Part shown: positions 14,768 to 63,964 of the stretch, one piece after another | Numbering within the stretch: the stretch's first letter is position 1 | How the letters are laid out: each line of letters begins with the position of its first letter | Assembly: GCA_963702845.1 (NCBI GenBank) | Contig: OY969763.1 | Span: 1,888,001 to 1,952,000 of the forward strand | Source: an uncultured Verrucomicrobiae bacterium | GTDB lineage: Bacteria; Verrucomicrobiota; Verrucomicrobiia; Limisphaerales; Palsa-1400 | Reading direction: 5' to 3' | Length of the DNA: 64,000 nucleotides | Notes under the pieces: generated by a model | What the model saw: only the letters and a program-made list of their open reading frames with translations | Told to the model about the DNA's origin: nothing | The model's database searches: none | Position numbers and translations under genes: made by a program

Positions 14768-15346
14768 CTAATTACACAATCGGCCTGCGGATAAGATGGT
14801 TCTGATTACTTTTGATTCAGTGTCAGTCGTCCCGTCTAACACCAAGACTTGTGGGATTGTCTCCGCAAGTTGATGGAGATGTCGGTCGACGGTTGATCTG
14901 AAACCTTCATCAGTGTCGCGCGGCTTTTCGGGATCGATTGTAACCGGTGCTGTGGCTTTCGAGTATATTAGACAGCCGTAGGTCAAACAGTGGTGGGCAA
15001 CTAACTCGCGGAGGTATGCTTGGCGCCGCGTATCGAGCTTTTCATTCCGGAATTCAAACGCCGCCAGCTGATAGCCAAGCGCGTCGACCGGAGGCCGGTC
15101 GACAAGCAGAATATCTTGCGTTTTGTGTTCGAGTTCCAAGCTAATTCCTCGTGCCATCATCCACAATGTGCTCTCAAATGTATGATTCGCTAGGATTGGA
15201 AATCCGCGATCCCGGGCCTCCACAGCCAAACCACCGAGAGTTTTTACTGACAATCCTCGGTTTACGAGTTCCGCCTCAAGCTTTTTCAAAAAGCTCGACT
15301 TGCCCGTAGAATGGGTGCCGAAAATTCCGATTTTAAATTGAGCCAT
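14768..15346 (-). CDS. P-loop nucleotide-kinase-like protein (AAA_28/NadR/thymidylate kinase-like)
   Basis: KIGIFGTHSTGKS, LLVDRPPVDALGY, RDTDEGFR; start overlaps the upstream radical SAM stop. Confidence 0.8.
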   Translation of the reverse strand: MAQFKIGIFGTHSTGKSSFLKKLEAELVNRGLSVKTLGGLAVEARDRGFPILANHTFESTLWMMARGISLELEHKTQDILLVDRPPVDALGYQLAAFEFRNEKLDTRRQAYLRELVAHHCLTYGCLIYSKATAPVTIDPEKPRDTDEGFRSTVDRHLHQLAETIPQVLVLDGTTDTESKVIRTILSAGRLCN

Positions 15347-16475
15347 TATCGTTCCATCCAATGTCAGCACGTCCGTGTCGCCCAATTTTATGTGGGTGTT
15401 TTCGATCGTGCACCTGAAAACGAAGATTATGCTGCAAAAAATACCGATATTGTTCGTCCAAATCATCGAATTCGATGGCCCGGTCAGTTATCGAGAAAGA
15501 TTTATCGGTTCTGCCGATTGCCTTTAATAAGAGTGAGACGGCGGAGTCGTCGGGTCGTCGATGGCGATGCGAGCACAAATCTACTTGGCCTCTTGGGCAA
15601 ATATCGCAAAGCTCGGTGATTCCGAAATGCCCGTTATAATCTGCGTCGCCGTGTGCAAAACAAACGCCGCACGAAGTCTTTCTGAAAAGTTTGTGCCTTT
15701 CGCCGGCGGTAGTAAATGTGGCGATGATTTGGCGTTCAAGATCTTCAGGCAAGATTTTTCGACGGGCTGTGGCCCCGTACGGTTCCGGCAAACCAGCCTG
15801 TTGATAGAATGCTTTTATCTCGTCTCTATAGAATAGCCCCGTGAAGACCGTCGCGTGCGAATGTCGGCTTAAATCAACCGCCTTCGTGATGTCCTCATCT
15901 CGGTCGTTAAGTCCAGGGACGATTGGCCGCCAATATTGCACGACTCGAAACCGCTCGGCCTGCGAGTAAGCTAACTTCAGCGAGTGCTCGGCAATCGAAC
16001 TGTCGATAGGTTCGATGCGACCGTCCTGAATTCCAGAATGTGTGATCAATAACGTAATCCGCAAGGAGCGCAGAGCATTCAACCTCATGCAATCTTCTGC
16101 GAGCACTTTGTACCGGCTGATCACGAGAACGTGGTTCTTCAGTTGCATTGCATCCATCGCATTTAAGACAGCAAACAGGTGCGGTTTAACCGTTGGTAGA
16201 AATGGATCGGTCGCACGGTTGAAAATCTGGATCGGCGTGATGTCTCTACGGAAAAATTTGTGCCCGATTAGCAGGCCAACCGCCTCGTTATCGGACATGA
16301 GGAGCGCGGGTTCCTTCATCTCGAAATTATTGAACAGATGCCGAACGCAATAGGCACAATCAAGTGGACATCCGATGACGTGATTTAAGCTTAACCCTGA
16401 CTTCCGGTACTCAATCGGGTCCTGTAGGCTGGAATTCAAGCCCACCCATTGAGATTGCGAAATGTGTCTCAACAT
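15333..16475 (-). CDS. Radical SAM protein, SplB-like
   Basis: SLNHVIGCPLDCAYC, ATDPF, RIEP, RPIVPGLND. Confidence 0.85.
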   Translation of the reverse strand: MLRHISQSQWVGLNSSLQDPIEYRKSGLSLNHVIGCPLDCAYCVRHLFNNFEMKEPALLMSDNEAVGLLIGHKFFRRDITPIQIFNRATDPFLPTVKPHLFAVLNAMDAMQLKNHVLVISRYKVLAEDCMRLNALRSLRITLLITHSGIQDGRIEPIDSSIAEHSLKLAYSQAERFRVVQYWRPIVPGLNDRDEDITKAVDLSRHSHATVFTGLFYRDEIKAFYQQAGLPEPYGATARRKILPEDLERQIIATFTTAGERHKLFRKTSCGVCFAHGDADYNGHFGITELCDICPRGQVDLCSHRHRRPDDSAVSLLLKAIGRTDKSFSITDRAIEFDDLDEQYRYFLQHNLRFQVHDRKHPHKIGRHGRADIGWNDNGSI

Positions 16476-20660: not shown

Positions 20661-21098
20661 TTACAATGCCCGTTGAATGCGCTGCAAACAATTTAACGGG
20701 CGTTTTGCCAATGCACATTCCCAAATTCTAACAACCGTCCATCCTGCCGCGCGCAGCTTGCGCGTGACACGACGATCACGATTCTTGTTTCCAACGATCT
20801 TGCCGCGCCATAATGCCGCGTTTCGCTTGGGTTTTAGATTGCGACCACATTCATGGCCATGCCAAAAACAGCCGTCAACGAATACCGCCAGTTTTCCTCT
20901 TGGAAAAACGAAATCGGGTTTGCCGGGCAGGAGAAAATCACGGCGCCATCCATGCAATCGCGCGGAGCGTAAGAGCAAGAGCAGTTTCAATTCCGTAGAG
21001 GCATTTCGCTTGCTGCGAATCCGCGACATAAGCACCGAACGAGATAGTCCTCCAAATGTCGTTTTCGTATGTTTGCTACTACCGGGCCAGCGACTCAT
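20661..21098 (-). CDS. vsr: Very short patch repair endonuclease
   Basis: RSVLMSRIRS, LPGKPDFVF, FVDGCFWHGH, NKNRD, IWEC. Confidence 0.9.
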   Translation of the reverse strand: MSRWPGSSKHTKTTFGGLSRSVLMSRIRSKRNASTELKLLLLLRSARLHGWRRDFLLPGKPDFVFPRGKLAVFVDGCFWHGHECGRNLKPKRNAALWRGKIVGNKNRDRRVTRKLRAAGWTVVRIWECALAKRPLNCLQRIQRAL

Positions 21099-22174
21099 GG
21101 CGCTTCTTCAACTCCTCTCGGATGCGCTTGCCAGCCACACGCGCGAACTTCGGTGGCACGGCGTTTCCAATCATATCGCATACCACTTCCATGTGATCCG
21201 TTTCAAACTTGTAGCCGCGTGGAAAAGTTTGAATCAGCGCCGCCTCACGCACCGAAATTGTCGTGCGACTTTTTTTGTTGGGATGGCCGAAGCGCCCCTT
21301 GCAAGCCGTAGTACCAGCCGCCAGTCATCGTGATGGGAGTTTGATTCCATGACATCCGACCATAAGTGTTTGTGAATCCTTCGTAGCCGCTACGATGACA
21401 CTCGGGGCGAATGGATTCCTCCAACCCCAGCCACGTCTTTCCAGGAATTGCGGCGTCGAGTCGCGCGGCAACTTGCGGTTGAAGGTCGCGGACAACGTGC
21501 CAATTGAATTTTCTTGGCCCGCCCTTCTTGCGTGCCTTACTCATCACAATCGGAATTGGTTGTTTCGCAACCACGTCTCGGAGCGTGAGCCATTTTTTTT
21601 GTTTTGAATTTGGCTGTGGATTCTTGGCGTGAGTGGTTTCAGGAAATGGAATGGCGAAACCGCGTCCAGCAAAAAGCACGAGCCGCCTGCGCGATTGCGG
21701 CACGCCATAATCTGCCATTTGAATGACTTGCCATCGAGGCCAATAACCCGCCGCGCGCAAACGCGCCAAGAACTTCTTGAAGATTCGCTTGCCCCTTTTC
21801 TGCAAACCCGGAACGTTCTCCATCATAACTACGGTGGGTTTGAGTTCTCTAATGAGCGTCGCCATTTGCAACACCAATTTGTTGCGTGGGTCTTTTCGTT
21901 TGTTTTTAACGGTGAGCGAACAAAATCCCTGACACGGGGCGCACCCGGCCAGCAGGGATATTTTTTTTCCGCCGCACAATTTTTGCAACTCGCTCGCGGT
22001 AACTTTGCAAATATCGCGTTCAATTAGATTTGTCTGCGGATGATTCTTGCGGTAGGACTTCGCAGCCGCTGCGTCGATCTCAACGGCAGCACGAACATCA
22101 AAGCCCGCTTTCTGCAGGCCTTCTGACAGGCCGCCACACCCGGCGAACAAATCAATTGCAATGAGCGGTTTCAT
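21079..22174 (-). CDS. dcm: DNA (cytosine-5) methyltransferase, apparent one-base insertion near 21314
   Basis: [22 protein letters not shown]. Removing one base restores [11 protein letters not shown]...[12 protein letters not shown]...IGNAVPP, ending at TAG 21079. Confidence 0.9.
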
Positions 22175-24300
22175 CAAGATTTTCCACCTGACAACTTTCT
22201 CTGCCTTTTTGCCTCGTTTAGGAATTCCTTATGTGCTTGCCCAGTCCGGAGCAAAAATGTTTTCCAATTTATGTGTGTGAGTGCCTGCGTGGACTTGTAG
22301 CCGTCAAATGCCGCCCGAGTGGCTCCTGTGAGTCCGATTTGATCGCAAATCAATGTGATGTGGAATTTTGGAAATTTGTCGGCAAAGTCTTTATTTCCTT
22401 CTTCTTTCAAGAAATCCCGCATTAAATCGTGGTAGCGCACAATTCTCTCCATTTCCTCATTGGCCAACTTGTGTTTTGGACGCTTAATTTCAATGATCTG
22501 AACAGTATCGTCCTGACTTGAAAGAACGAAATCAGCACGTTTAGTGGAATCGGAGAAATCATGCAACACAATATCCTTTTTCGTCCGGTCCTTGTAAAAT
22601 TTTACGAACTCTGTTCTCAATGATTCAAAAGACTGGTTGGCGGTAATTGGCGACCATGCTGGGTTAATTAACCAAGGGGCTTCCGTGAGCAGTTTTTGCA
22701 GTTCCGCTTCCTGGGTGGTTTTGTCGTCTTTGAGTTTTTCTATGGTTTCTATAACTCGCACGCGATCATCTACAATCCGACCAAACGAGGCCAATTCTGC
22801 GATGCGCGCGGTCTTCAATACTTCCGACACCACGGACATCGGTCTGTCTTTTGAGCCCGCAGCTTGCTTAAGTTTTCGATCCAAGGTTATGTGTGGCCCG
22901 AGCAGGAGGCTGAGTTGCACGAAACACTCGATTGTTTCCGGGTCTTCTAGTTCGTCTTTGCGCGCAGCTTTAGCTATTGTCTCCGCCATTTCCATGGTCT
23001 GCTCACGAATTTCTTTGTTGTCTTTACCAGGATATGCCGCTTCAACTTTTTGTTCGATTTTGGATTCTTCTTGGAATTTTTCCCACGCCGACACCCTCAT
23101 GGGTTCACGAGTAATTTTGCCGAGCAATTTCACCAGTGACTGCCCCCACTTCTCAAAGCTTTGCCCCAAATCGTGTGACCAAAGAATATCTTGACGGTCT
23201 GTGCGGATGAGATCTTCCGCCTCATCGAGCCAGGGGGTGTGCAACTCCCCGATCAGATAGGAACGCACATCGTGTTCTCCAGTAAATCCTGCCGTTAGGT
23301 CAAAAAGTTTTGTCTGTGCAGCAATTTTGCCGCGGCAATAGATACGAATACCGGCCATCAATTCATCTTTGTATGGCTTCGGCGCGTAACCGACCCATCC
23401 GGTGACAGGGTAAAAGCGGCCTTCATGTTCAAAGCCGGGAAGCAAATCGCCCAGGTCAATATTCGGAGGGCCGGTTACAGTGTAGTCGGTTGATTTAGAG
23501 GAGTCCTCTTTGGCTTTTGCTTCGCGTGAAAATGTTATTTTCGTGGCGCTGTTTGCTTCAATTTGAAACTCGCCGACCGAACACTCGTAACCTTCTTGGT
23601 TGGATTTTTTGTTTATATCCCGGAGCGCAATGCTCCATTTTGCCGACTGCAATCCGAACCGCTGTGCCATCTGACGCTCAAAGTCTACGATGGTAGGAAC
23701 GTGACGGTAATCGAAAATCGTCATCCGAATAATCGTTCCGGCCTTGGGACGATAAGTGCCATCGAGTGAGCCTATAGGCGGAAAATATGGTTCGTCTGTT
23801 TCACTCAGAATCGCACGACGCTCAAGGATAAGATGGCACGTCAAATAGCCCGTTTTTTCTACCCCTTTAGCGTCGGTGTATTTACATGCGTTGCCACCCG
23901 CCGTGATAACCTCAATCTTTTCGCATACACCAAAAGGAGCTAGTTTGCCGACGCCCTTTCGCCCCATCACCCGACGTTTGTAAATCTTGGATAAATCGCC
24001 GCGCTTGGGATCACTACGACGTTCTTTTCCGACTTTAAGATAAAATTCATTTACCTGCTCCGCAGTCATTCCAACGCCGTCATCTTCAACCTCAATGACA
24101 TAACCGCGATCCGTTATGACACCTTTGCTCTTCGTTGATAGCAATTCACCCATCGGCGCGCGCACAGTCACTTCAGTTGCGTCAGCGTCGTAGCTGTTTG
24201 CAATGATTTCAGCGATGACAGCCGAAACCCGGTCATAAAGTTTGACGCCCAGCTTGTCAACCGTAAGCCGGGAAATCGTCATTATGTATTTCTCATTCAT
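22174..24300 (-). CDS. GHKL (MORC/HATPase_c_3) ATPase fused to C-terminal PD-(D/E)xK nuclease
   Basis: [30 protein letters not shown]...IIEIKRP; TGATG coupling to dcm. Confidence 0.85.
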
Positions 24301-24990
24301 GATGAACAATGGCCCGAATCTAATTTTTCATGCAAACGCATGTGGACATGCTGTGTTGAGTGTGGGCGGGAAATTTATCAGCGTCAATACTAGGGCGCTG
24401 GTCAGTCCGCGACTCCGGCCTTCAACCCTCCGGTGCTCGCGCCGCCAATGTCCTCGGCCTCTCCGATCAGGTGCCAATGGGTTTCTGGCATTTCGCAGCA
24501 TGCCTAATAGACCTCGATAGTGATCATCGAGAACGGGCCGTTTTGAGGTTGTCGCAACAAGCGGAAGTAGAGTATCCAGCTGGAAACTGTAGGTTGCAGC
24601 TGATTCTAAAAATTGAACCACTTTTTTCTTACCGCCACGGCGGCAAAAACCGTCTCAAGGAAACGAAACAGCTTGGCTTCAACGGCCACGTTTCCGTGTT
24701 GAGAAAAATCTTCGTTTGGAAAACTGTGGTTTTTGCTCCCAAGGCATTGAATGCGGTCCACATGAAATCTTCTTGCACCAGTCTAAATGCAATATCCCAC
24801 GGAGTGTGTTGCTGAGAACATTTCGCGCATGCGATCATCCTTTTTTGGAACTGCAGATCGACAAAGGATTCCGGCAAAAGTTCGGAGCGCTGCACGCATT
24901 ACATGAAAAGTGGGGGCCAGATTACGTAATGTAGCGGTTAAGCCTGGCGTCTGAGGAGGTCTCATTGATGCGAGTTTAGTGCACTTAAAT

Positions 24991-25362: not shown

Positions 25363-25479
25363 ATGTAGTTTTGGTCTATGCTGATCGTTGACTTGCTACT
25401 CTTTATTGCGCCGGAGTAAAGGCGTTTCTGGACTGTTTGCGCGTCGTATGTAGTTTTGCTATCGTTGCTCGCATCGAAA

Positions 25480-27068
25480 ATGAGCGCGGCGAACGAAGCT
25501 GAATGCGATGACTCAAGCGGCACCATAAATCCCTCATTTGGGGTCGGAAAGCTGGCGGAAAACCTATTTGAACAATGGACTTACCGAATGGGATGGATTC
25601 CTCGAAGGCAAGAGCCCGATTTTTTCGTTGATTACTTGGTAGAGCCGAGTTCAGGTAAAACATTGGTGGGATGGAGTTTTGGTGTCCAAGTGAAAGGTGT
25701 ATCCATTTCCAAGAACACCGGTATCCGAAAAGGTATGTCGCGAAAGGTAAACACGTCAGGCACTGGACGGAAAAGTGCCGGTATCCCGTTTTTCTCTTTT
25801 TAGTTGATGTAACGAGCAGTCGCGGCACGTGGCTGTTCGTCCAAAAGTACGTTAAGGAGAATATCAGCGAGCGAGCGCTTAAGACTCAACGGAGCTTCAC
25901 GCTCCATCTTCATCCCAAAAATAATTTGGATAACGTCACTGGGTTTATCTCGGCAGTCGAAGCAGCCGCTACATACGTTAACGATATGTATCCTGGTTCT
26001 CCTAAAGCAGCTGTAGAAAAAAGGCAGCGTGAACTGAAGGAACTCGACCCCAGATTATCGATCAAGGTAACAGCCACACAAGACGTTGAGACACTGCACG
26101 TATCCGCCGACCCACCGGTTCCGTTTAAAATGCGCATTCGTGATCCGTCCGCTCGGCTGGCGTTCAAACGAGCAATCGAAAGCGGGACTAAATGCACGTT
26201 GATGCTCGATGCATTGGAGTTTTCCGAGTCGCCATTTTTTGAAAAATACAACAAATCCAAGGGAAGTTTGTTGATGCAATTTGCGCAGAAAACGTCTGGT
26301 CATATCTGTCTTGGCTTCAAAACATCTGCGGGATCGCGAATTCTACAGGTAAACGGCGAATATAGCGCCGGAACAAAACGAGCAACATTCCGCGGCACCA
26401 CCCCGAATGCGCCGCTCGAAATCAAGTGCGGCATAGGGATACCTTGTCTCGATGCAAACAAGGATATTTCCATCGGATTATTCCAGCACTTGGAACGGTG
26501 GGAAGGTCAGCAGGTTCTGCTGCTGTCGCATTTTGATGAGATATTTGGAATATACGAGTCGTTGTTTTCCGGCGAGGGTGTCGAAATCGAGCATTACATT
26601 GCTGGTAATCGTTTTGCCCATGGGAATTTGCAAGGTATAGCAAATGAATCAAGCAAGGGGCTTCTCAAAACACTTCGATGGCTTTCACGCTGTCGCCTTG
26701 TTACAAAACGGTACCAAATTAACCCGAAACTGCCGAGATTGGATTCTATCACTGCGGTTCAACTGGAAGCCGTTGATGATCTCGCGGCCTTGATTTGTTC
26801 AGCAAAGCGCGTAATGCCATATCCACATTTCCATAAACGCGGACGGCCTTCTCGTGTCGCCGAACTGACGAGTCAGGGCCCGATGATTGTAAGGATCGAT
26901 ACCGAGGGTGCGAAATTCGACGTACTTGGGCATCACGTGATTGTCGGAAATATTCGATCCATTTTCACCGGTGTCACTATCACCGTGCTAGAAAATACGC
27001 GTTCCGGAAAACCCGTTCTGGACCTCCGCGGTTCAGCTTCGACGATGAGAATGCTGGAGAAGTTTTAG
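25480..27068 (+). CDS. DUF4365-like PD-(D/E)xK nuclease domain protein, frameshift near 25720
   Basis: PDFFVDYLVE...FGVQVKG in ORF 25456-25803; continues as YPVFLFLVDV in ORF 25671-27068. Confidence 0.7.
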
Positions 27069-27098
27069 CTGGAGTTGGAGTCATATATTCCGAATCGA

Positions 27099-27371
27099 AT
27101 GAGCACATCACACACGTTTGTTCTTGGCCAACGAGTTTCTCTTGAAGAGGACGAAACGTACGAATTCAAAAGTGTAACGTCAGGTCGGCCTGCTGACGCC
27201 ATAGCGAATACCGACGATGAATACGTTGTCGGTTTTTTGAATGGTCAAGGTGGAATAGTTTTGTGGGGAATTTCCGATGAAGGCTTGGTGATTGGTGTCT
27301 CGTTGCAACGCGCCGATCTCGAATATGCACATTTTAGAACGTTTGGAAGAGTTGGTGGCGAGTCTATTTGA
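27099..27371 (+). pseudogene. Truncated Schlafen/AlbA_2 domain
   Basis: EDETYEFKS...VVGFLNGQGGIVLWGISDEG.VIGV, then early stop. Confidence 0.65.
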
Positions 27372-27486
27372 AGAAAGGCAGCCCACAACTTCCTGATAGT
27401 TATTTTCCTTCGTTTAAAGGAGGTTGGCAGCACGCCAAATTCGGCCTGCGTGTGTAAAAATATTTGGCCCGATATGCTTGGGCCAT

Positions 27487-27710
27487 ATGAAAAACAATAA
27501 TCCAAAACCAAATAGCAAGGGTGAGAAGGGCTTGGGATACGGTGGACTGAAGTTATTGATCGATTTTTGGCGGATTTGATCACCAAACTGCGAATTGATC
27601 TGCTCGTGCAGGGGAATGAAATCCTGGGAAAGATTCGGGAAGTGAACGATTCGGTCGATATTATTGCGCGTGAAGTTGAGCGACAGGCGGAAAGGAGCAA
27701 GAAGTCTTAG
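27487..27710 (+). CDS. Small coiled-coil protein (copy 1; one T missing in homopolymer near 27565)
   Basis: Homologous to 63109-63330 (LKLLI..LADLI.K.RIDLL.QG.EIL.K.REVNDSV). Confidence 0.6.
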
Positions 27711-27719
27711 TGAATTTCG

Positions 27720-28347
27720 ATGGTCCAGCCAATCGTTGTGAGTCTGTTCGACTATACCTGCAATATGGTGAAGCCGTGGGCGGAAGCTGGGTTCCTTTGC
27801 TACTGTGTGGATATAAAACATCCTGCTGGCGAGCATCGCGACGGCAACATTGTTCGGGTCGGCGCTGATGTGCGCGAGTGGCTGCCGCCATTCGCACCAA
27901 TAAAAATTCTATTCGCATTTCCTCCGTGCACGCACGTTGCCGCAAGCGGCGCGCGGTGGTTCAAAGACAAAGGTCTCGGTAGTCTCATTGATTCGCTCCA
28001 CATGTTTGACGCATCAGTGCGTTTGGCGAAGTGGACGAAAGCACCATACATAATCGAAAATCCGGTAAGCACGGTTTCAACCTACTGGCGCAAACCGAGA
28101 TCACACATTCAATCCGTGCGACTTCGGCGGCTATCTCACGCCTTCCAGTGATCCCTACACCAAGAAAACGTGTTTGTGGATCGGAAACGGGTTCGTCATT
28201 CCCAAAATGAAACGTGTGCGACCGATTGATGGAAGCAAGATGCATCGTTTGCCTCCGTCGGCTGGTCGCGCCGCGTTGCGCTCGGAGACTCCGCGTGGAT
28301 TTGCGAATGCTGTGTCCGGGGCGAACTCGAAATCACACCGGTCATAG
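27720..28347 (+). CDS. Short phage/MGE-type cytosine methyltransferase (copy 1; extra base near 28097)
   Basis: SLFDYT, FPPCT, ENPV, then YTKKTCLW, RSETPRGFA after frame correction. Confidence 0.75.
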
Positions 28348-28363: not shown

Positions 28364-28780
28364 TCAGCGTACGGTTTTCTCGGGTTCGGTGATCGTTCCC
28401 TTAGAGTTCCACCACTTTTCGACTTCCGCTTCGGACATCTGGGGCATTTTACCGATGAGTAGCCTCACTTTGTTACGCCGGAGGATAAAATGGCTGCAGC
28501 AGCCAGTGGTTAGCCAAACTGAAGGCCACAAGGACAAACCGTACTTTGGTTCCAAAGCCATTCGCCAAGCTAATCCCGTTTCCGGCATGAGATTCACTGA
28601 TATTATCTCACCACAGCCGCACGGGCAGAAGAATTTGAGGCTTTTTGCGCGTTTGTTCGGAATGACGATTACAAGCACTCCAGGTTTGATGAGTGATGAA
28701 GCCTGAGTTTGATCATGCGCCCTGACAACCTTGGAGTATTTAACGTCCCTATACGAAAATTTCACTTCGAGACCACTCAT
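28364..28780 (-). CDS. DUF6527-like metal-binding protein
   Basis: FFCPCGCG...LSLWPSVW...GCCSHFIL. Confidence 0.75.
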   Translation of the reverse strand: MSGLEVKFSYRDVKYSKVVRAHDQTQASSLIKPGVLVIVIPNKRAKSLKFFCPCGCGEIISVNLMPETGLAWRMALEPKYGLSLWPSVWLTTGCCSHFILRRNKVRLLIGKMPQMSEAEVEKWWNSKGTITEPEKTVR

Positions 28781-30318
28781 AGTTTCAGATTCTTAAGGAG
28801 GTCGCAGGCGAGAGAGTAACATAAGGCCCGGCGTTTGGCCATGTGCGGTTTGTCTTCCGCCAGATCTTGCGGTTGGCTAGCAAATCTCAACAGGTGGCAA
28901 ATAGTCAGCACTTCATACTCATATGTGGGGATGCCTTCGCCGCCTGCCAGCCTACGAATTTGATAAATGGCGTCTGTGCGACCATCTGTAACGGTAAAGT
29001 CGCGGGGAGGAAGCAAATGGCCATGATACATCCGGCGCAACGCAGTTTCCGAAAGCTGTTGGTCGGTTTTATCGGTTACCGTCAATGCAATACTCGTTTC
29101 AAGTTTCGCGGGATCACGGGCCAGCGATTCCCGAATTCCGGAATGAGAAAAATCTATTAGAATTGTGTCGATCGAGTTCCACCTAACAAAAACATTCCGG
29201 ACGTTCAGATCACCGTGTACACGACAAATGTAATAGTCGATTTTCGGTTGGTTCTCTAGCTGTTGCCACAATTGAGACGGGCTTGGAAGTGAGGGCGTCT
29301 TTTTTCGCGCGTCGGCAAAGCTACCAGAAAGTCGTGTGGGGTCAGGAAGCAGCGATTTCGCGAGCGCTTCTTTCGGGTCGAGCTTCATCGCTTCCTTCTG
29401 CTGATTAACGTAAAAATAGCCGAGGGATGCATGTATTAGATCAATTGCACGCCGCCACTTTCGCAACGCTCCTTCAAACAGGGATACCATCACAAGCTCA
29501 GGGTTTGAACTGGTGGCGAGATATTCGTCGAGACGTTGTGATCGGCCGACAAACGCAGAGACGATAAGTGCACGTGTGGCACCTTTGATGAATTTAGCTT
29601 CGAGAATAGGCGCACGAAACGGAAATGGAACGTAATCGCGGACAAAATCTTGGTATGTATCAAATTCGGTTTGCAAATCGAGAAGCCGCCCCGCTTTCGC
29701 TACGAATGGTTGACATGGCTGGCTGTCCCGGCTTGCTTCGATTTTCCACACGTTGCAGTCTGTTGAACGTCCTCCTTGCTGTGACGTGAGATTCACGTGG
29801 CTGAAATCGTTAAATGCTCGCTTAAGCAAGATCATGTCAGTCTCATAATCCTCGATGCGAGTTGCCTTGTAATCGTCCTTACTGTGGCCGGGAAGCAAGA
29901 GTGTTGCTTTAGCGACAGCAGGTTGTTTTGCCAAGTGAGAGGTGATCACTCGTGCGAAATCGTTGGGCTCGTTTCTCCTCGGCTCACTGTTGATCACAAC
30001 GATCTGCGCTGATACTTTCTGCTTAACCGCGCTTTGCAGTTTGTACGCAGCAGTTAAATCAGAAGCTGCTACGCCAAGTAACACGCCGTAATCCTGCAGG
30101 TGCGTCGTCAATAACCGTAGCATCCTGCCGTGAGCCTTTTGGGCATCCTCACCATCGGCAGATACCAGCACCGCCAACAAGTCCTCGGCTCCAGCATTGA
30201 ATTCGCTTATATCGCTGGCTGCTTCAACCGAAAGACTCAGCATGGTAGCAATTTCGCGCAAGTTCTCAGGAACCTGACGACCGACCCATACAACTCGGCT
30301 CCGTTGCCCGGCAGTCAA
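28777..30318 (-). CDS. Protein-kinase-like/APH phosphotransferase with N-terminal alpha/beta domain
   Basis: GGRS loop, FVAK, LQTE, HGDLNVRN, LIDFS, RDPAKLE. Confidence 0.8.
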   Translation of the reverse strand: MTAGQRSRVVWVGRQVPENLREIATMLSLSVEAASDISEFNAGAEDLLAVLVSADGEDAQKAHGRMLRLLTTHLQDYGVLLGVAASDLTAAYKLQSAVKQKVSAQIVVINSEPRRNEPNDFARVITSHLAKQPAVAKATLLLPGHSKDDYKATRIEDYETDMILLKRAFNDFSHVNLTSQQGGRSTDCNVWKIEASRDSQPCQPFVAKAGRLLDLQTEFDTYQDFVRDYVPFPFRAPILEAKFIKGATRALIVSAFVGRSQRLDEYLATSSNPELVMVSLFEGALRKWRRAIDLIHASLGYFYVNQQKEAMKLDPKEALAKSLLPDPTRLSGSFADARKKTPSLPSPSQLWQQLENQPKIDYYICRVHGDLNVRNVFVRWNSIDTILIDFSHSGIRESLARDPAKLETSIALTVTDKTDQQLSETALRRMYHGHLLPPRDFTVTDGRTDAIYQIRRLAGGEGIPTYEYEVLTICHLLRFASQPQDLAEDKPHMAKRRALCYSLACDLLKNLKL

Positions 30319-31664
30319 CTTGGCCTCCCAGGCATAGGTAAAGTGTCTCCCCTCGCGAACACCCCATTAAGCGAACAAACCACGCAATGCGGCAACGGTT
30401 CGGATGATGCCGCACGAACTACGCCGCGATTGAACAGAACCAACTGATGTCGCACCGGAAGGGGCAAACCCGCGACAGCGGAGAGCATCATAGTTACACC
30501 AAGTGAAGCAACTGTGCCGTTTAACGAGATTACAGCTGGTTGAGGTTCCACCGCCCCAACTATATACGGGTCACGCACCCTTGCTTCGTCTGTCAGAAGG
30601 TCCTGGCGCACTTCTTCCGGGTCGAGAAGATTATGGCATAGCAGACAAGGAAGACCTGGAGCGAGCATTTGAATTCTCCCGGTCACGCTTTGGACTTTAC
30701 CAGCACGCACCTGAATTCGAACGCCGAGGTCAACAGTGGGGATGACATATTGATAGGCGAGTTGGTTTATGACTGCACGGCTGCCGTGGGAGTCGGTGCA
30801 ACAAAAAATAAAATCGCACGAGAGCAGTTTTTGGGCATCGCCGGATACCATTACATTTCCGGCATGTCCAGCAGGGTCGGATTCGGGATTAATGTGACGA
30901 ATTAAATTCGCCGCCACGTCCACCTTTGGTCTGTCAATATCGCTTCGCGTCGCACCGACAACACGATTCAGATTCGTTTCCTCAACGCGATCCGGATCGA
31001 GCAACACAAAGTCTTTCACGCCCAAATGGGCGAGTTGTTCTGCAACGATCGAGCCCAAGCCACCAAGTCCAACGATACCGACACACAATTCAGCAAGCGC
31101 TGCTTGCCCTTCAACTCCAAACGCTCGTACGCTCCTATCAAAGCGATGTGGGACCTTTGGGGTCGAACTGTTGCCGCGATTATGAAACGTGACATCTCGT
31201 CCAACCTCAGTGACAGGGGACGCATTGGTCGGAACAGCATTCGGCGCATTCCAAATTCGAGCGTTACAATCACGTGCCGTGAGCAAGAGGGCTCCTTGGG
31301 GAGCTCCGTTTGTCCGTGAAAAGAGAGTCGGCATTAAAATCCGTTCACCTTCATCATCCACGATCGAAAATTGTGCCTTGTCAGCGAAAGGGTGTGTATG
31401 GGTTAAGACCAGCGAGAACCCATCTTTGCGAGCTTTTTTCAGAATGGGCATTATGAACGACGGGTCGATCACGGCACGGAGATTGTCTTGAGCTTGGTAG
31501 GACTCGGAGGGCACAACGAAATGCTCGCGAACTAAAAGCCGTACGCGCTCACCTTCACCAGCGTGGCCCGCAATGAGAAGAGCAGCGGCTTCCTTTGGTG
31601 CTGATGAAAATAGTGCTTTTCGTAGGTGAGGCAGCCCATCGTCTCCGAATACAATGCCTTTCAT
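30315..31664 (-). CDS. JAB peptidase + ThiF/E1 fusion
   Basis: KEAAA...HTHPF...FSIVD; GLGGLGS, DRVEETNLNR, CTDS, CLLC, CVVC. Confidence 0.9.
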   Translation of the reverse strand: MKGIVFGDDGLPHLRKALFSSAPKEAAALLIAGHAGEGERVRLLVREHFVVPSESYQAQDNLRAVIDPSFIMPILKKARKDGFSLVLTHTHPFADKAQFSIVDDEGERILMPTLFSRTNGAPQGALLLTARDCNARIWNAPNAVPTNASPVTEVGRDVTFHNRGNSSTPKVPHRFDRSVRAFGVEGQAALAELCVGIVGLGGLGSIVAEQLAHLGVKDFVLLDPDRVEETNLNRVVGATRSDIDRPKVDVAANLIRHINPESDPAGHAGNVMVSGDAQKLLSCDFIFCCTDSHGSRAVINQLAYQYVIPTVDLGVRIQVRAGKVQSVTGRIQMLAPGLPCLLCHNLLDPEEVRQDLLTDEARVRDPYIVGAVEPQPAVISLNGTVASLGVTMMLSAVAGLPLPVRHQLVLFNRGVVRAASSEPLPHCVVCSLNGVFARGDTLPMPGRPS

Positions 31665-32053
31665 CGCTTTTCCTCGAACCGGCGACGTATCATGGAAACA
31701 TAGTTAACCAAGCTGTCCCGGTTAGGGTTCCAGGCGGCTGGATGCCACGAAAACCAGAGTAAATTAGGTGGCACGCCTGGAGGCTGGTTTTGACCTGTGC
31801 TGACCGGCGGCCCTCCGGAAGCCAATTTCAATCCCGGATCAGTCCAAAACGTGTCAGGTCGGGCGACGGGATATCCGACTGGCACTAGGAAATAAACATT
31901 AGTGGTGGCGGGGGTCCATCCTTCCGGCAGCACGAAATCGTAAAGCTTTATCAAGGTGGTGCCGTTCGAAATTTGCGCTTGCTCCAGCCTAGAAAACCGC
32001 CGGCCCTTGCCAGCTTCCGCCAATTGCGCGATATGGTCGTCAAGAATGGCCAT
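31661..32053 (-). CDS. Prokaryotic E2 (family E-like), cysteine-free
   Basis: LPEGW...VPVGYPVARPDTFW...WFSWH...WNPNRDSL; the protein contains no Cys. Confidence 0.8.
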   Translation of the reverse strand: MAILDDHIAQLAEAGKGRRFSRLEQAQISNGTTLIKLYDFVLPEGWTPATTNVYFLVPVGYPVARPDTFWTDPGLKLASGGPPVSTGQNQPPGVPPNLLWFSWHPAAWNPNRDSLVNYVSMIRRRFEEKR

Positions 32054-32065
32054 GGATCAGTTTTT

Positions 32066-32338
32066 TTAAACGTAACGGCCCATGGTAGCCGGCGGAATTG
32101 CATAAAAATGTATGTGTTCCTTAATCGCCAGTGCTTCTGTGTCTCCAATGAGCTTGTCCGGGTGATCGCCCTGTTCTTCGAGGTACAGTTGATAACCGGC
32201 GTCAATATGAGCTAACGCTTTGATTTCTGATCCCGTCATACTCGTCTTATCCACCTCGTACTTGACCGCATCGATGAAGATCGTGAATCTGTGCTTTTTT
32301 TCTGCGGGATTTCCGCCATGTTCCTGTTCTGTTGGCAT
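32066..32338 (-). CDS. Ubiquitin-like (Multi_ubiq) protein
   Basis: FTIFID...MTGSEIKALA...YQLY...HFYAIPPATMG plus RYV tail. Confidence 0.8.
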   Translation of the reverse strand: MPTEQEHGGNPAEKKHRFTIFIDAVKYEVDKTSMTGSEIKALAHIDAGYQLYLEEQGDHPDKLIGDTEALAIKEHIHFYAIPPATMGRYV

Positions 32339-33106
32339 ATAGTTTCCATGAATTTAGGTTTCACGGATGCATTGTCTGCTCTCCGCTCCAGTGTTGCGAA
32401 TGAACCGCGGCACGTTACAGCCAAAAACGAGACAAGTAAACCGTTTTGGATATCGGACAAATCCAAACAGTCGCGTAGAAGTTCAATAGATTTGCCACAG
32501 CACCAAATACCGGGTTCTTAAGTTCTTTCGTGGATTACTCATAGCGGAAGCATAATTTCAAAGATCGGACGGCGTGATTTCGCGGCCGTCTTCTGTTCCT
32601 CGAACCATGCCGGATCTGGATGTCGTTCTCCCTGCGTATCTGGTAATCACGTTTCGCTGCGCGACGAGCGAAACGCCTTCCGCGCCTTCATGCACGGAAA
32701 GACGCGGATGTAGCGAATTGATGCGCGATTAACGAATAATCGAACGCATTCATTGTGAACCATCGTTCCTGAATCTCGCTTGTACGGCTGTGAGGCTTCT
32801 GCTAACTTGGTCCCTGTGGTTTACGGGGAATGCCAACGAACTTCCCATTGCGGGCGCGTTTGGGTTTCGGGACTGTTGGTTTGTTCGGATCGAACGGAAA
32901 GCGCGCGAAGATAGGTGAGTGCGGGTCGAGGTTTTTCCAGACGTTTTTTTAATGCTGATTTCAGTCGTTTAGTTCGATCTTCGTCCATTCCCCGCTTTCC
33001 CAGAATAGTTATACAGCATCCATACAATTTGATACGATTCCCACAATACAGCATCGTCTCAAAACGGCCTTGCATTTACCGTTCCAAGCAGCACAGTCAG
33101 AAAACT

Positions 33107-61868: not shown

Positions 61869-63108
61869 GCTTCTGAATCTATTCCGCCGGATGTTATTTA
61901 CAACTTCAATAGAAGGTAGGCGTATTTGACAGCGGTTTCACGTGAACTACGTTTATCAATTAGTCACTGCTTCGCGGCAGTTGTGTTCGTGCGCAACCCC
62001 AATTCGGGCGCAGATTGTGCGAGAGGTAAAAGATGCCAGGGATCTCGACAGTGAACTACAAAGGAACGCAATTCACAGGCGACGTGTTTGTCGTTCAGAT
62101 CGCTGTTTGGAATGCGGGGCGGGAACCGATGCGGACGGATGATGTAATAAAATCTATTGTTCTGCGGTTTCCTACGAATTGTGTCGTTCTACAAGCTAAG
62201 ACGATCAAAACGCAACGTGAGGTGATCGGATGGAACCTAGATACTCCGACAAATGCTTTCCTGACGGGAATTTCGCTCAAGTGGAAAGTTTTGGAACATA
62301 ATGACGGGGCGTTAATTCTAGTTATTTATAGTGACCCGTTGAATGCGCCAATTGGTTGCGAGGGGGGTTGTAGTTGGCCAAGAGTATCCAGAATGGTTAA
62401 CGTCGCAAAGTCGGTCTGCTGAAACATATACGTCAGCGTTGGTTCTGTTCGTCGCTTGGTGCTATGTAACTATGCCAAACATAGAGAAGAAACTAAGCAG
62501 GCGATGGAGTTTGGTTTCTTTGCTCTTTGGCGGCGTATTCGCACTTTTCATGTTTTACTTATACTTTCACGCAATTTTTTCACGTCAGAACGACGCCGTT
62601 TGGATTCTAAAAGAACTGCATTAGGCAAGCACGGCCACCTGCGATGACGAGCGGCATTCTTTTCTTCATGTTTGCGTTCGCGAATTGATAGAAAACATCA
62701 AAGGTCTTGTCGCTAAAAATACCTGCGAAATTGCGAAACCCTGGGTCATCCACCCCGACGTTGTAGTATTGCGAATCCTCAAGGTCTTTGTACGCGCGGT
62801 GTCAAAATTGCACAGACCTCCCGTGAAAAAACACAAAAATTAAATTACGGTTGCGGATCAATCGTGAACTCGGCATTTCCAAATGCGATTATTCCCGACG
62901 GCTTCGATATAATCTCACGAGTTTTTGAAACATCTCCCACTTCTATCGCCGTCGAATCTGTCGCTTTTCCCATCGTCACCATCCGCCCAGCGATCGTTCG
63001 TTTGATGAGTTCTTCTCGAAAGCCGGAGCGAAGGCATTCGTGACTTGCCGAACGAGGCAAGGCGCAGTGTCTGTTCAAAATGTTTCAAGAGAAATACTCT
63101 GGTCACAT

Positions 63109-63330
63109 ATGAAAAATATTAATGCAAAACCAAATAGCGGTCGAGAGGAGGGTCTGGGGCAAGATGCATTGAAGTTGTTAATCGAATCCTTAGCAGATTT
63201 GATTGCGAAGGTGCGAATTGACCTGTTGCAGCAAGGTGGTGAAATCCTCGCCAAAGTTCGGGAAGTGAACGATTCGGTCGGTAATGTTCGCCGTGAAATT
63301 CAACGGCATGTCCAAAGAGGTGATTCGTAA
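63109..63330 (+). CDS. Small coiled-coil protein (copy 2)
   Basis: Homolog of 27487-27710. Confidence 0.65.
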   Translation: MKNINAKPNSGREEGLGQDALKLLIESLADLIAKVRIDLLQQGGEILAKVREVNDSVGNVRREIQRHVQRGDS

Positions 63331-63339
63331 TGAACGCTG

Positions 63340-63964
63340 ATGGCACAAGCTATCGTAGTGAGTCTTTTCGACTACACCTGCAACATGGTGCAACCTTGGG
63401 CAGAAGCGGGGTTCCTCTGTTACTGCGTGGATATAAAACATCCTGCCGGCGAACACCGCGATGGGAACATTGTTTGTGTCGGTGCTGACGTACACGAATG
63501 GTTACCTCCCTATGGCCCCGTAAAGATTTTATTCGCATTTCCGCCATGCACGCATGTGGCAGCAAGCGGCGCACGTTGGTTTAAAGATAAAGGTCTCGGT
63601 GGTCTAATTGATTCGCTTCAACTGTTCGACGCGGCCGTGCGTTTGGCGGAGTGGACAAAAGCACCGTATATGATCGAAAATCCCGTCATGTACCATTTCA
63701 ACCTACTGGCGCAAACCAAATCACACATTCAATCCATGTGATTTTGGCGGATATATCAATCCCTCCTACGATGCATATACCAAGAAAACATGTCTGTGGA
63801 CCGGAAACGGGTTCGTGATGCCAAAAGCGAAACGCGTGCGACCGGTGCTCGGCAGTAAAATGCATCGTCTGCCTCCGTCGCCGTCGCGCTCGGCATTGCG
63901 GTCGGAGACGCCGCGTGGATTTGCGCAGGCTGTGTTTAGCGCGAACCGTGGACGGACCTCTTAA
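63340..63964 (+). CDS. Short cytosine methyltransferase (copy 2; extra base near 63689)
   Basis: FPPCT, ENPV, then YTKKTCLW, RSETPRGFA after frame correction. Confidence 0.75.

Follow-up and report, generated by a model that had tools for sequence, protein, structure and literature searches.

Type I Bub operons (6E.1/DUF6527) encode a ubiquitin-like protein (Ubl, BubA), a Cys-less E2 with Asp, Ser and His residues (BubB), a fusion of a JAB peptidase and an E1 with a loop Tyr (BubCD) and a DUF6527 protease (BubE), and they are found in mobile defence islands (PMC11601596, PMC11601603). According to PMC11601596 and PMC13373217, Bub operons have no known target, effector or phenotype. Here we analyse a Bub operon in a window of 64,000 nucleotides from an uncultured Verrucomicrobiae bacterium (contig OY969763.1, positions 1,888,001 to 1,952,000; coordinates below are those of the window). 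The operon shares all four components with Type I Bub, but differs in a fifth gene, encoding a kinase, between bubCD and bubE. It represents a real and conserved five-gene subtype of Type I Bub, apparently undescribed, whose dedicated kinase has a pseudo-receiver domain. An earlier note, made from the sequence alone, had described five genes on the minus strand in the order Ubl, E2, JAB/E1, kinase and DUF6527 with three 4-bp overlaps, and the coordinates of the open reading frames (ORFs) and the sequence agree with this in every point. The features are as follows.

32066..32338, minus strand: bubA, 90 aa, ubiquitin-like, single beta-grasp (Pfam Multi_ubiq, 6e-9)
31661..32053, minus strand: bubB, 130 aa, Cys-less E2 (Pfam Prok-E2_E, 2e-11; Citrobacter BubB 9eae, E 6e-6)
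30315..31664, minus strand: bubCD, 449 aa, fusion of JAB peptidase and E1 adenylation domain (Pfam ThiF, 1e-36; 9ea4, E 6e-44)
28777..30318, minus strand: kinase gene, 513 aa, TTG start (Pfam TCAD9, 5e-13; model pLDDT 90; fold searches)
28364..28780, minus strand: bubE, 138 aa, DUF6527 Ser-His protease with a C4 zinc site (Pfam DUF6527, 1e-16)
30324..30329, minus strand: Shine-Dalgarno-like GGGAGG, located 5 bases upstream of the TTG start of the kinase and still within the last part of bubCD, recurring in close relatives (sequence)
29926..30306, minus strand: predicted receiver-fold domain, kinase residues 5-131 (structure alignment of the model)
28780..29853, minus strand: kinase domain, residues ~156-513 (GG-x-S loop, K208, E218, HGDLNxxN at 368-375, D389)

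The overlapping start and stop codons read ATGA at 31661-4, TTGA at 30315-8 and ATGA at 28777-80. The kinase starts with the TTG at 30318; where the two genes meet, relatives show TTGA, GTGA or ATGA, and an NTGA overlap recurs there in many of them. A database entry (P0006) holds a 488-aa form of the kinase, probably from a later start. The genes bubA and bubB do not overlap; they are 12 bases apart in the same frame with two stops between them. A bubA-bubB fusion by frameshifting or readthrough at an A-run (32060-67) was ruled out, as both ORFs lie in one frame and the A-run shows no conservation. The five-gene order recurs in dozens of loci and is not a product of chance. A promoter scan returned no sigma-70-like sites, and terminators were at chance level.

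In sequence, the core is that of Type I Bub, with a counterpart for each catalytic residue that PMC11601596 names; the assignment to Bub in the earlier note is borne out. BubA terminates in PPATMG followed by the three-residue tail RYV, and Gly87 is nearly invariant. Relatives carry zero to tens of residues after this Gly, as would be expected if the JAB domain trims the tail and so exposes Gly87. The BubB residues Asp67, Ser102 and His104, the latter two within a WFSWH motif, align to Citrobacter BubB and are invariant in 27 of 27 sequences. The JAB domain has no Pfam match of its own; it aligns residue by residue to the solved Citrobacter BubCD (9ea4), with an intact site (E25, H89, H91, S100, D103). 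The E1 domain carries the adenylation residue R234 and the crossover-loop Tyr367 and has no loop Cys. This Tyr is present in all 59 BubCD rows compared (37/37 kinase-linked, 22/22 others). In BubE, the zinc cysteines C52, C54, C56 and C94 are found, and the S87/H97 dyad is invariant in 32 of 32 sequences.

Besides the additional gene, the operon departs from described Type I Bub in a separate bubA ending in PPA(T/S)(F/M)G with a short tail, in the WFSWH motif of BubB and, in many relatives, in a C-terminally extended BubE. The bubA and bubB genes are separate ORFs in the window and in every kinase locus listed, with no BubAB fusion among them, whereas the text of PMC11601596 describes BubAB as fused in all Type I operons. 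Counted by eye, however, the accessible Table S1 of that paper lists separate Ubl and E2 genes in 31 of its 139 rows for Type I; the split is therefore not disqualifying for Type I Bub. The BubE extension comprises 70-80 residues (L032, L033, L035, L037, L039, L044-L047, L051, L062 and L093) and resembles a winged helix by eye, with no Pfam match in the two tested. In its place, BubE of the sub-branch that includes the window carries a short helix with WW at its end.

The locus differs from Type II Bub in that its E2 is separate rather than part of an E2-E1 fusion and that a JAB domain is present, fused to E1. With Bil (Type I/II) and the conjugation module of Type II CBASS (antiphage signalling systems based on cyclic oligonucleotides) it shares Ubl/E1/E2/JAB conjugation in a defence setting. 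Those systems use Cys thioester chemistry, lack DUF6527 and, unlike Bub, have shown antiphage activity; the locus also differs from Bil in having Tyr/Ser rather than a catalytic Cys in E1/E2 and a fused rather than separate JAB. The link to Bil drawn in the earlier note thus extends to the shared type of pathway and not to its chemistry, as Bub forms Tyr/Ser oxyesters instead of Cys thioesters. PADLOC, which the earlier note had suggested running, returned only generic E1-E2 matches for BubCD, and the remaining four proteins had no match.

Among described kinases, two groups come close. CapK, of the CapK-CapS pair, is likewise linked to Bub operons (PMC13373217), but is an HTH-STAS-GHKL kinase (HTH, helix-turn-helix) that is encoded upstream and phosphorylates a repressor, whereas the kinase described here has an APH fold and is internal, with no CapS-like partner noted. 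The protein resembles the TCAD9 (PF19974) conflict-system kinases in a kinase domain above the Pfam cut-off, and its profile matches receiver-TCAD9 proteins at a probability of 99.7. It differs from them in its partners, which are Bub genes rather than VMAP, TIR, STAS or histidine kinases, and in its N-domain, a pseudo-receiver. The TCAD9 match spans only residues 343-417, an APH match (0.003) falls below the cut-off, and no PADLOC or NCBIfam model matches the kinase. The word kinase occurs zero times in the main texts of PMC11601596 and PMC11601603 and in two supplements of the former. In the accessible Table S1 of PMC11601596, 2 of 139 Type I rows show an unexplained gap in gene numbers between E1 and DUF6527, one of them in the row for B. 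tropiciagri (IMG gene 2641677678). Our literature search, whose scope did not include Millman 2022, the CapK datasets or the Bub paper as published in a journal, returned no account of a kinase inside Bub operons.

The 513-aa protein is likely an active kinase, judged by its catalytic residues. It has a protein-kinase-like fold whose motifs are present, namely the Lys, the Glu, HxDxxxxN and D(F). Across 142 diverse homologues, K208, H368, N375 and D389 do not vary, while E218 is kept in 138 and D370 in 141 of them. Together with the overlapping start and stop codons, this conservation upholds the claim of the earlier note that a translationally coupled kinase with intact motifs is embedded in the operon. 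The structural model is confident (predicted local distance difference test, pLDDT, 90.3; predicted template modelling score, pTM, 0.85). When residues 156-513 were aligned with VIA-align, choline kinase, methylthioribose kinase and APH scored Z 15-17 (best 16.6), with 256-286 residues aligned, a root-mean-square deviation (rmsd) of 3.6-4.7 and 10-13% identity, and Foldseek agreed. Maltokinase was also among the best Foldseek and VIA-align matches, and all matches lie at 8-16% identity. Peptide and protein kinases of the APH fold score close to these (LxmK in its complex LxmKY, Z 15.2; TvaE, 14.3; YihE, 12.7), and therefore the fold leaves the class of substrate open. An antibiotic-resistance APH was ruled out as an identity for the protein, given 8-16% identity and a score far under the APH(3') cut-off.

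Residues 5-131 are modelled as a five-stranded CheY-like fold (VIA-align: 2b4a, Z 10.9, rmsd 2.5, 109 residues aligned; 2qxy, Z 10.6). An atlas gave OKR_DC_1_N for this domain as a lead only (score 0.85). The positions of the acidic pair, phospho-acceptor and Lys were placed from the strand ends of the predicted model, and they are degenerate: Asp occurs at 53 in 6 of the 142 homologues, Gly at 13 in 122, and there is no conserved Lys near 110. According to the model, the N-domain is a pseudo-receiver, with a receiver fold that lacks the acidic pair and the phospho-acceptor Asp. Ubl-kinase fusions were absent from the proteins fetched; no search for longer proteins was made.

To describe the distribution of the kinase, we use 72 loci fetched together with a kinase alignment (58 from metagenomes, 14 from genomes), in which a profile E < 1e-30 counts as a strong match. 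Bub genes (bubCD and/or bubE) adjoin the kinase in 50 of the 53 strong-match loci, down to ~20% kinase identity. These comprise 37 loci with the order bubCD-kinase-bubE, one with bubCD and 10 with bubE in which the other side is cut, and the near copies L018 and L020, where bubCD adjoins the kinase and bubE does not; in L018, bubE lies elsewhere. One of the remaining loci is cut on both sides, and the other two (L029, L030) represent a truncated fragment with no Bub genes. None of the 19 weak TCAD9 matches lies beside Bub genes. Several loci are near copies, and these counts are therefore not independent. No full-length kinase was found away from Bub genes among the loci examined. That the kinase is a dedicated member of the operon we consider near certain. 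The earlier note had proposed a search for the five-gene synteny and had named, as part of what would refute its idea, that kinase homologues never occur in such operons; the conserved order shows that they do.

Named hosts include Acidobacteriota, Planctomycetota, Alphaproteobacteria and Deinococcus, and cultured, non-pathogenic hosts with the operon on plasmids are Mesorhizobium sp. 131-2-5, Bradyrhizobium and Deinococcus (with a plasmid operon in Deinococcus sp. AB2017081). A plasmid search with the kinase matched 13 records; seven were fetched, of which six have the five-gene order and one a kinase-bubE remnant. A reverse search with BubCD, which is free of kinase-first sampling, matched 118 plasmid records. 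Among the 60 of these listed, 13 are at least 40% identical, the next being at 34.8%. Kinase records make up 12 of the 13 (seven are near-identical Bradyrhizobium plasmids), and the thirteenth (L129) is an operon truncated by IS21 that has bubE but lacks the kinase. The kinase was absent from all 11 lower-identity plasmid Bub operons fetched. In the sample of the window's phylum, 2 of 301 genomes encode the kinase (G000, G282), and sampling of the phyla around G304 and G302 added no further full-length member. The kinase family is large in metagenomes: the library holds 490 clusters (50% identity) at E < 1e-30. Viral contigs (searched with kinase and BubCD) and GenBank phages gave no match at single-protein sensitivity. 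A kinase-BubE fusion in L022 was rejected as a frameshift by comparison with the near-identical L021. The locus of genome G377 (L094:4570-9100) has the order A-B-CD-E-A2-kinase, in which a second single-domain Ubl gene overlaps the kinase start. It has HTH and IrrE genes upstream and SMODS and type III restriction genes alongside. Kinase-type Bub operons often lie beside a second ubiquitin-like operon, either canonical Bub or E2-E1 plus JAB (L005, L007, L018/L020, L045).

In a quick, unrooted BubCD tree of 61 rows, from which 16 duplicate loci and short fragments were left out, the 37 kinase-linked rows and the kinase-less operon broken by an insertion sequence form one branch (SH-aLRT 97). 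The remainder comprises a 21-row kinase-less branch and two long-branch rows outside both. As most kinase rows came from the kinase search, the purity of the kinase branch is inflated. FastTree trees of the kinase and of BubCD from 34 operons have 23 of 31 splits in common. Identity to the window falls to ~20% for the kinase and to 41% for BubCD, so the kinase diverges faster. The shared splits show co-inheritance of kinase and BubCD, not interaction. What the analysis adds to the earlier note is the pseudo-receiver nature of the N-domain, the kinase as the mark of one branch of BubCD and its co-inheritance with that branch.

What the kinase does for the pathway can be read in several ways. 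Our leading, still tentative, reading is that it is the output of the pathway and is gated by BubA conjugation rather than by a phosphorelay. The catalytic residues of the core are intact, and we therefore transfer the known Bub chemistry to this operon. The JAB domain would trim BubA to its Gly and the E1 domain would adenylate it; BubA would then pass via Tyr367 to Ser102 of BubB and on to a target lysine, and BubE would remove it. Sequence and model show a kinase with its catalytic residues kept and a receiver fold that lacks the phospho-acceptor. Upon stress or infection, BubA may be conjugated to the kinase or to a protein that the kinase reads, and this conjugation may act on the pseudo-receiver and turn the kinase on, with BubE keeping it off. 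The substrate might be a host protein or a metabolite, the phosphorylation of which might halt growth.

TCAD9 kinases related to this one occur in fusions with TIR, STAS, Ser/Thr kinase or other domains, and the distant members L096 and L058 have receiver domains with acidic motifs and are encoded directly after HATPase genes. In the Bub-linked kinases the receiver is degenerate, and no HATPase_c match was found among the 90 neighbour ORFs scanned; therefore the input of the kinase has likely changed. Active APH-like kinases have been placed among the effectors of conflict systems (PMC7159879), and the faster divergence of the kinase relative to BubCD likewise speaks for an output. The coupling of A2 and kinase in G377 and the retention of the kinase without an adjacent bubE in L018 favour a tie to BubA and a role as output. 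As further observations on this family, receiver-TCAD9 proteins follow long STAS/PRTase/HATPase proteins in L096, L058 and L063, and two proteins (G1151, G1183; L155/L156; E ~1e-30) have a different N-domain, isochorismatase-like by eye, fused to TCAD9, with no Bub genes nearby.

Several points weigh against a conjugation-gated output. The kinase has no conserved Lys except the catalytic K208 (the next best position, 214, is Lys in 64 of 142 homologues), and therefore no obvious conserved conjugation site. Its closest solved folds are small-molecule kinases. A profile comparison with the true-receiver relatives, which covers the kinase domain only, gives no link between the two kinds of N-domain and so no support for descent of the pseudo-receiver from those receivers. 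Co-inheritance is unable to separate an upstream from a downstream role. The kinase occurs in 12 of the 118 plasmid records with a BubCD-like match, and a search of 401 genomes from a single alphaproteobacterial order gave 34 that are DUF6527-positive and three with the full-length kinase, each within a Bub operon. Most Bub operons thus have no kinase, and conjugation therefore does not need it. According to PMC11601596, no Bub operon tested protected E. coli from phage. A joint complex prediction of kinase, BubB, BubA and BubE scored 0.01 against a mark of 0.32, with controls not folded, and counts neither for nor against the reading.

Animal innate immunity uses ubiquitin-activated kinases. 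A bolder version of the output reading, which we hold to be unlikely, draws a parallel to them: a receiver-gated immune kinase would have lost its phospho-acceptor and would now be switched on by Ubl conjugation and switched off by BubE. It would then be the first dedicated target and effector to be identified for a Bub pathway.

It is somewhat unlikely, if less so than this version, that the kinase instead acts upstream. The pseudo-receiver would then sense a signal, and the kinase would phosphorylate a Bub component or prime a BubB target, replacing the missing E3 or serving as an on/off switch. Bub has no E3, and its conjugation is apparently nonspecific in E. coli (PMC11601596). The nucleophiles of the pathway are Tyr and Ser, so that Tyr367, Ser102 and the catalytic Ser87 could be phosphorylated; the peptide and protein kinases of the APH fold are near the top Z scores, and the WFSWH motif is invariant in, and particular to, BubB of the kinase branch. 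However, the BubA tail has no Ser/Thr specific to this branch, since Thr/Ser at -2 is common in kinase-less BubA too, and kinase-less operons function with the same residues. Moreover, CapW-like or CapH/CapP-like regulators are already present in several of the kinase operons.

The distribution of the kinase would also be accounted for by a single gain, after which a defence or stress gene that is transcribed together with Bub, but has no biochemical tie to it, was kept in one Bub lineage by the shared promoter. The branch member without a kinase (L129), the absence of an adjoining bubE in L018/L020 and the nature of TCAD9 kinases as mobile modules with many partner domains are in line with such a passenger. 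We regard it as improbable: genes of this kind usually do not keep an internal slot with overlapping starts and stops down to 20% identity and across several phyla, and in the loci examined no full-length member was found off Bub genes. Least probable is a small-molecule kinase acting on a nucleotide, sugar or antibiotic-like compound, with Bub working in parallel or controlling its level, for which the top fold matches (maltokinase, choline kinase, methylthioribose kinase, APH) and the low-molecular-weight substrates suggested for APH-like effectors in PMC7159879 speak, but peptide and protein kinases share the same Z range, all matches are at 8-16% identity, and the neighbour scan found no conserved biosynthetic or transporter gene by the kinase operons. 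Such a kinase would in part be compatible with the output reading if the enzyme were still gated by BubA. For the Bub pathway, the kinase branch offers one extra, catalytically intact enzyme that has long been kept with the core and is thereby a named candidate target or output. If a physical or enzymatic link is true, this would be a rare bacterial case in which ubiquitin-like and phosphate signalling are wired together.

The operon is located in a ~120-kb stretch with a GC content of 0.48-0.50 (genome, 0.54) that holds a Vsr/Dcm/HATPase-nuclease restriction locus, Mrr, RadC, a primase, Replic_Relax and a coupling protein. With its lower GC content and its restriction-modification and conjugation-type genes, this island matches the defence setting named in the earlier note. 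The operons of relatives adjoin integrases and restriction-modification, CBASS and Pycsar-type genes. As in described Type I Bub, WYL or HTH plus IrrE regulators stand beside several relatives: WYL regulators precede L039, L041, L045 and L047, and HTH/IrrE genes precede L035, L061, L095, L083 and L087. No such regulator was recognised directly upstream of the operon in the window, where short ORFs were not scanned against families. From this context we infer a role in defence or stress.

Further elements lie around the operon. At 20661-24309, a Type II restriction-modification locus encodes Vsr, a Dcm-type methylase and a HATPase-nuclease fusion; the methylase ORF (310 aa) seems to end early, possibly by a frameshift. 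A DUF4365 protein split across two frames (25456-27068) and a short Schlafen/AlbA fragment (27075-27371) are signs of decay near the operon. At 14768-16475, an AAA_28 kinase-like ORF lies beside a radical-SAM-like ORF (no Pfam match at 1e-5). The region upstream of bubA (32777-32996) has 69-77% identical copies at three other island sites. Just past the right end of the window, a second Ubl-E2-JAB/E1 operon lies behind a divergent HTH and IrrE pair (L073:6990-12873; G000:C1 ~1951990-1957870). The Ubl of this operon has PTPVS as its end and lacks the Gly, DUF6527 was not detected, and the JAB/E1 groups with neither of the two main BubCD branches; the operon is followed by a pair of SMODS-AGS_C and SLATT_6. 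A segment of 847 bp is duplicated at 77% identity (window 27484-28326 and 63106-63946), each copy flanking one Ubl operon. It contains a short ORF resembling a cytosine-methylase fragment (no Pfam match), and a third, partial copy is located at genome position 1959904.

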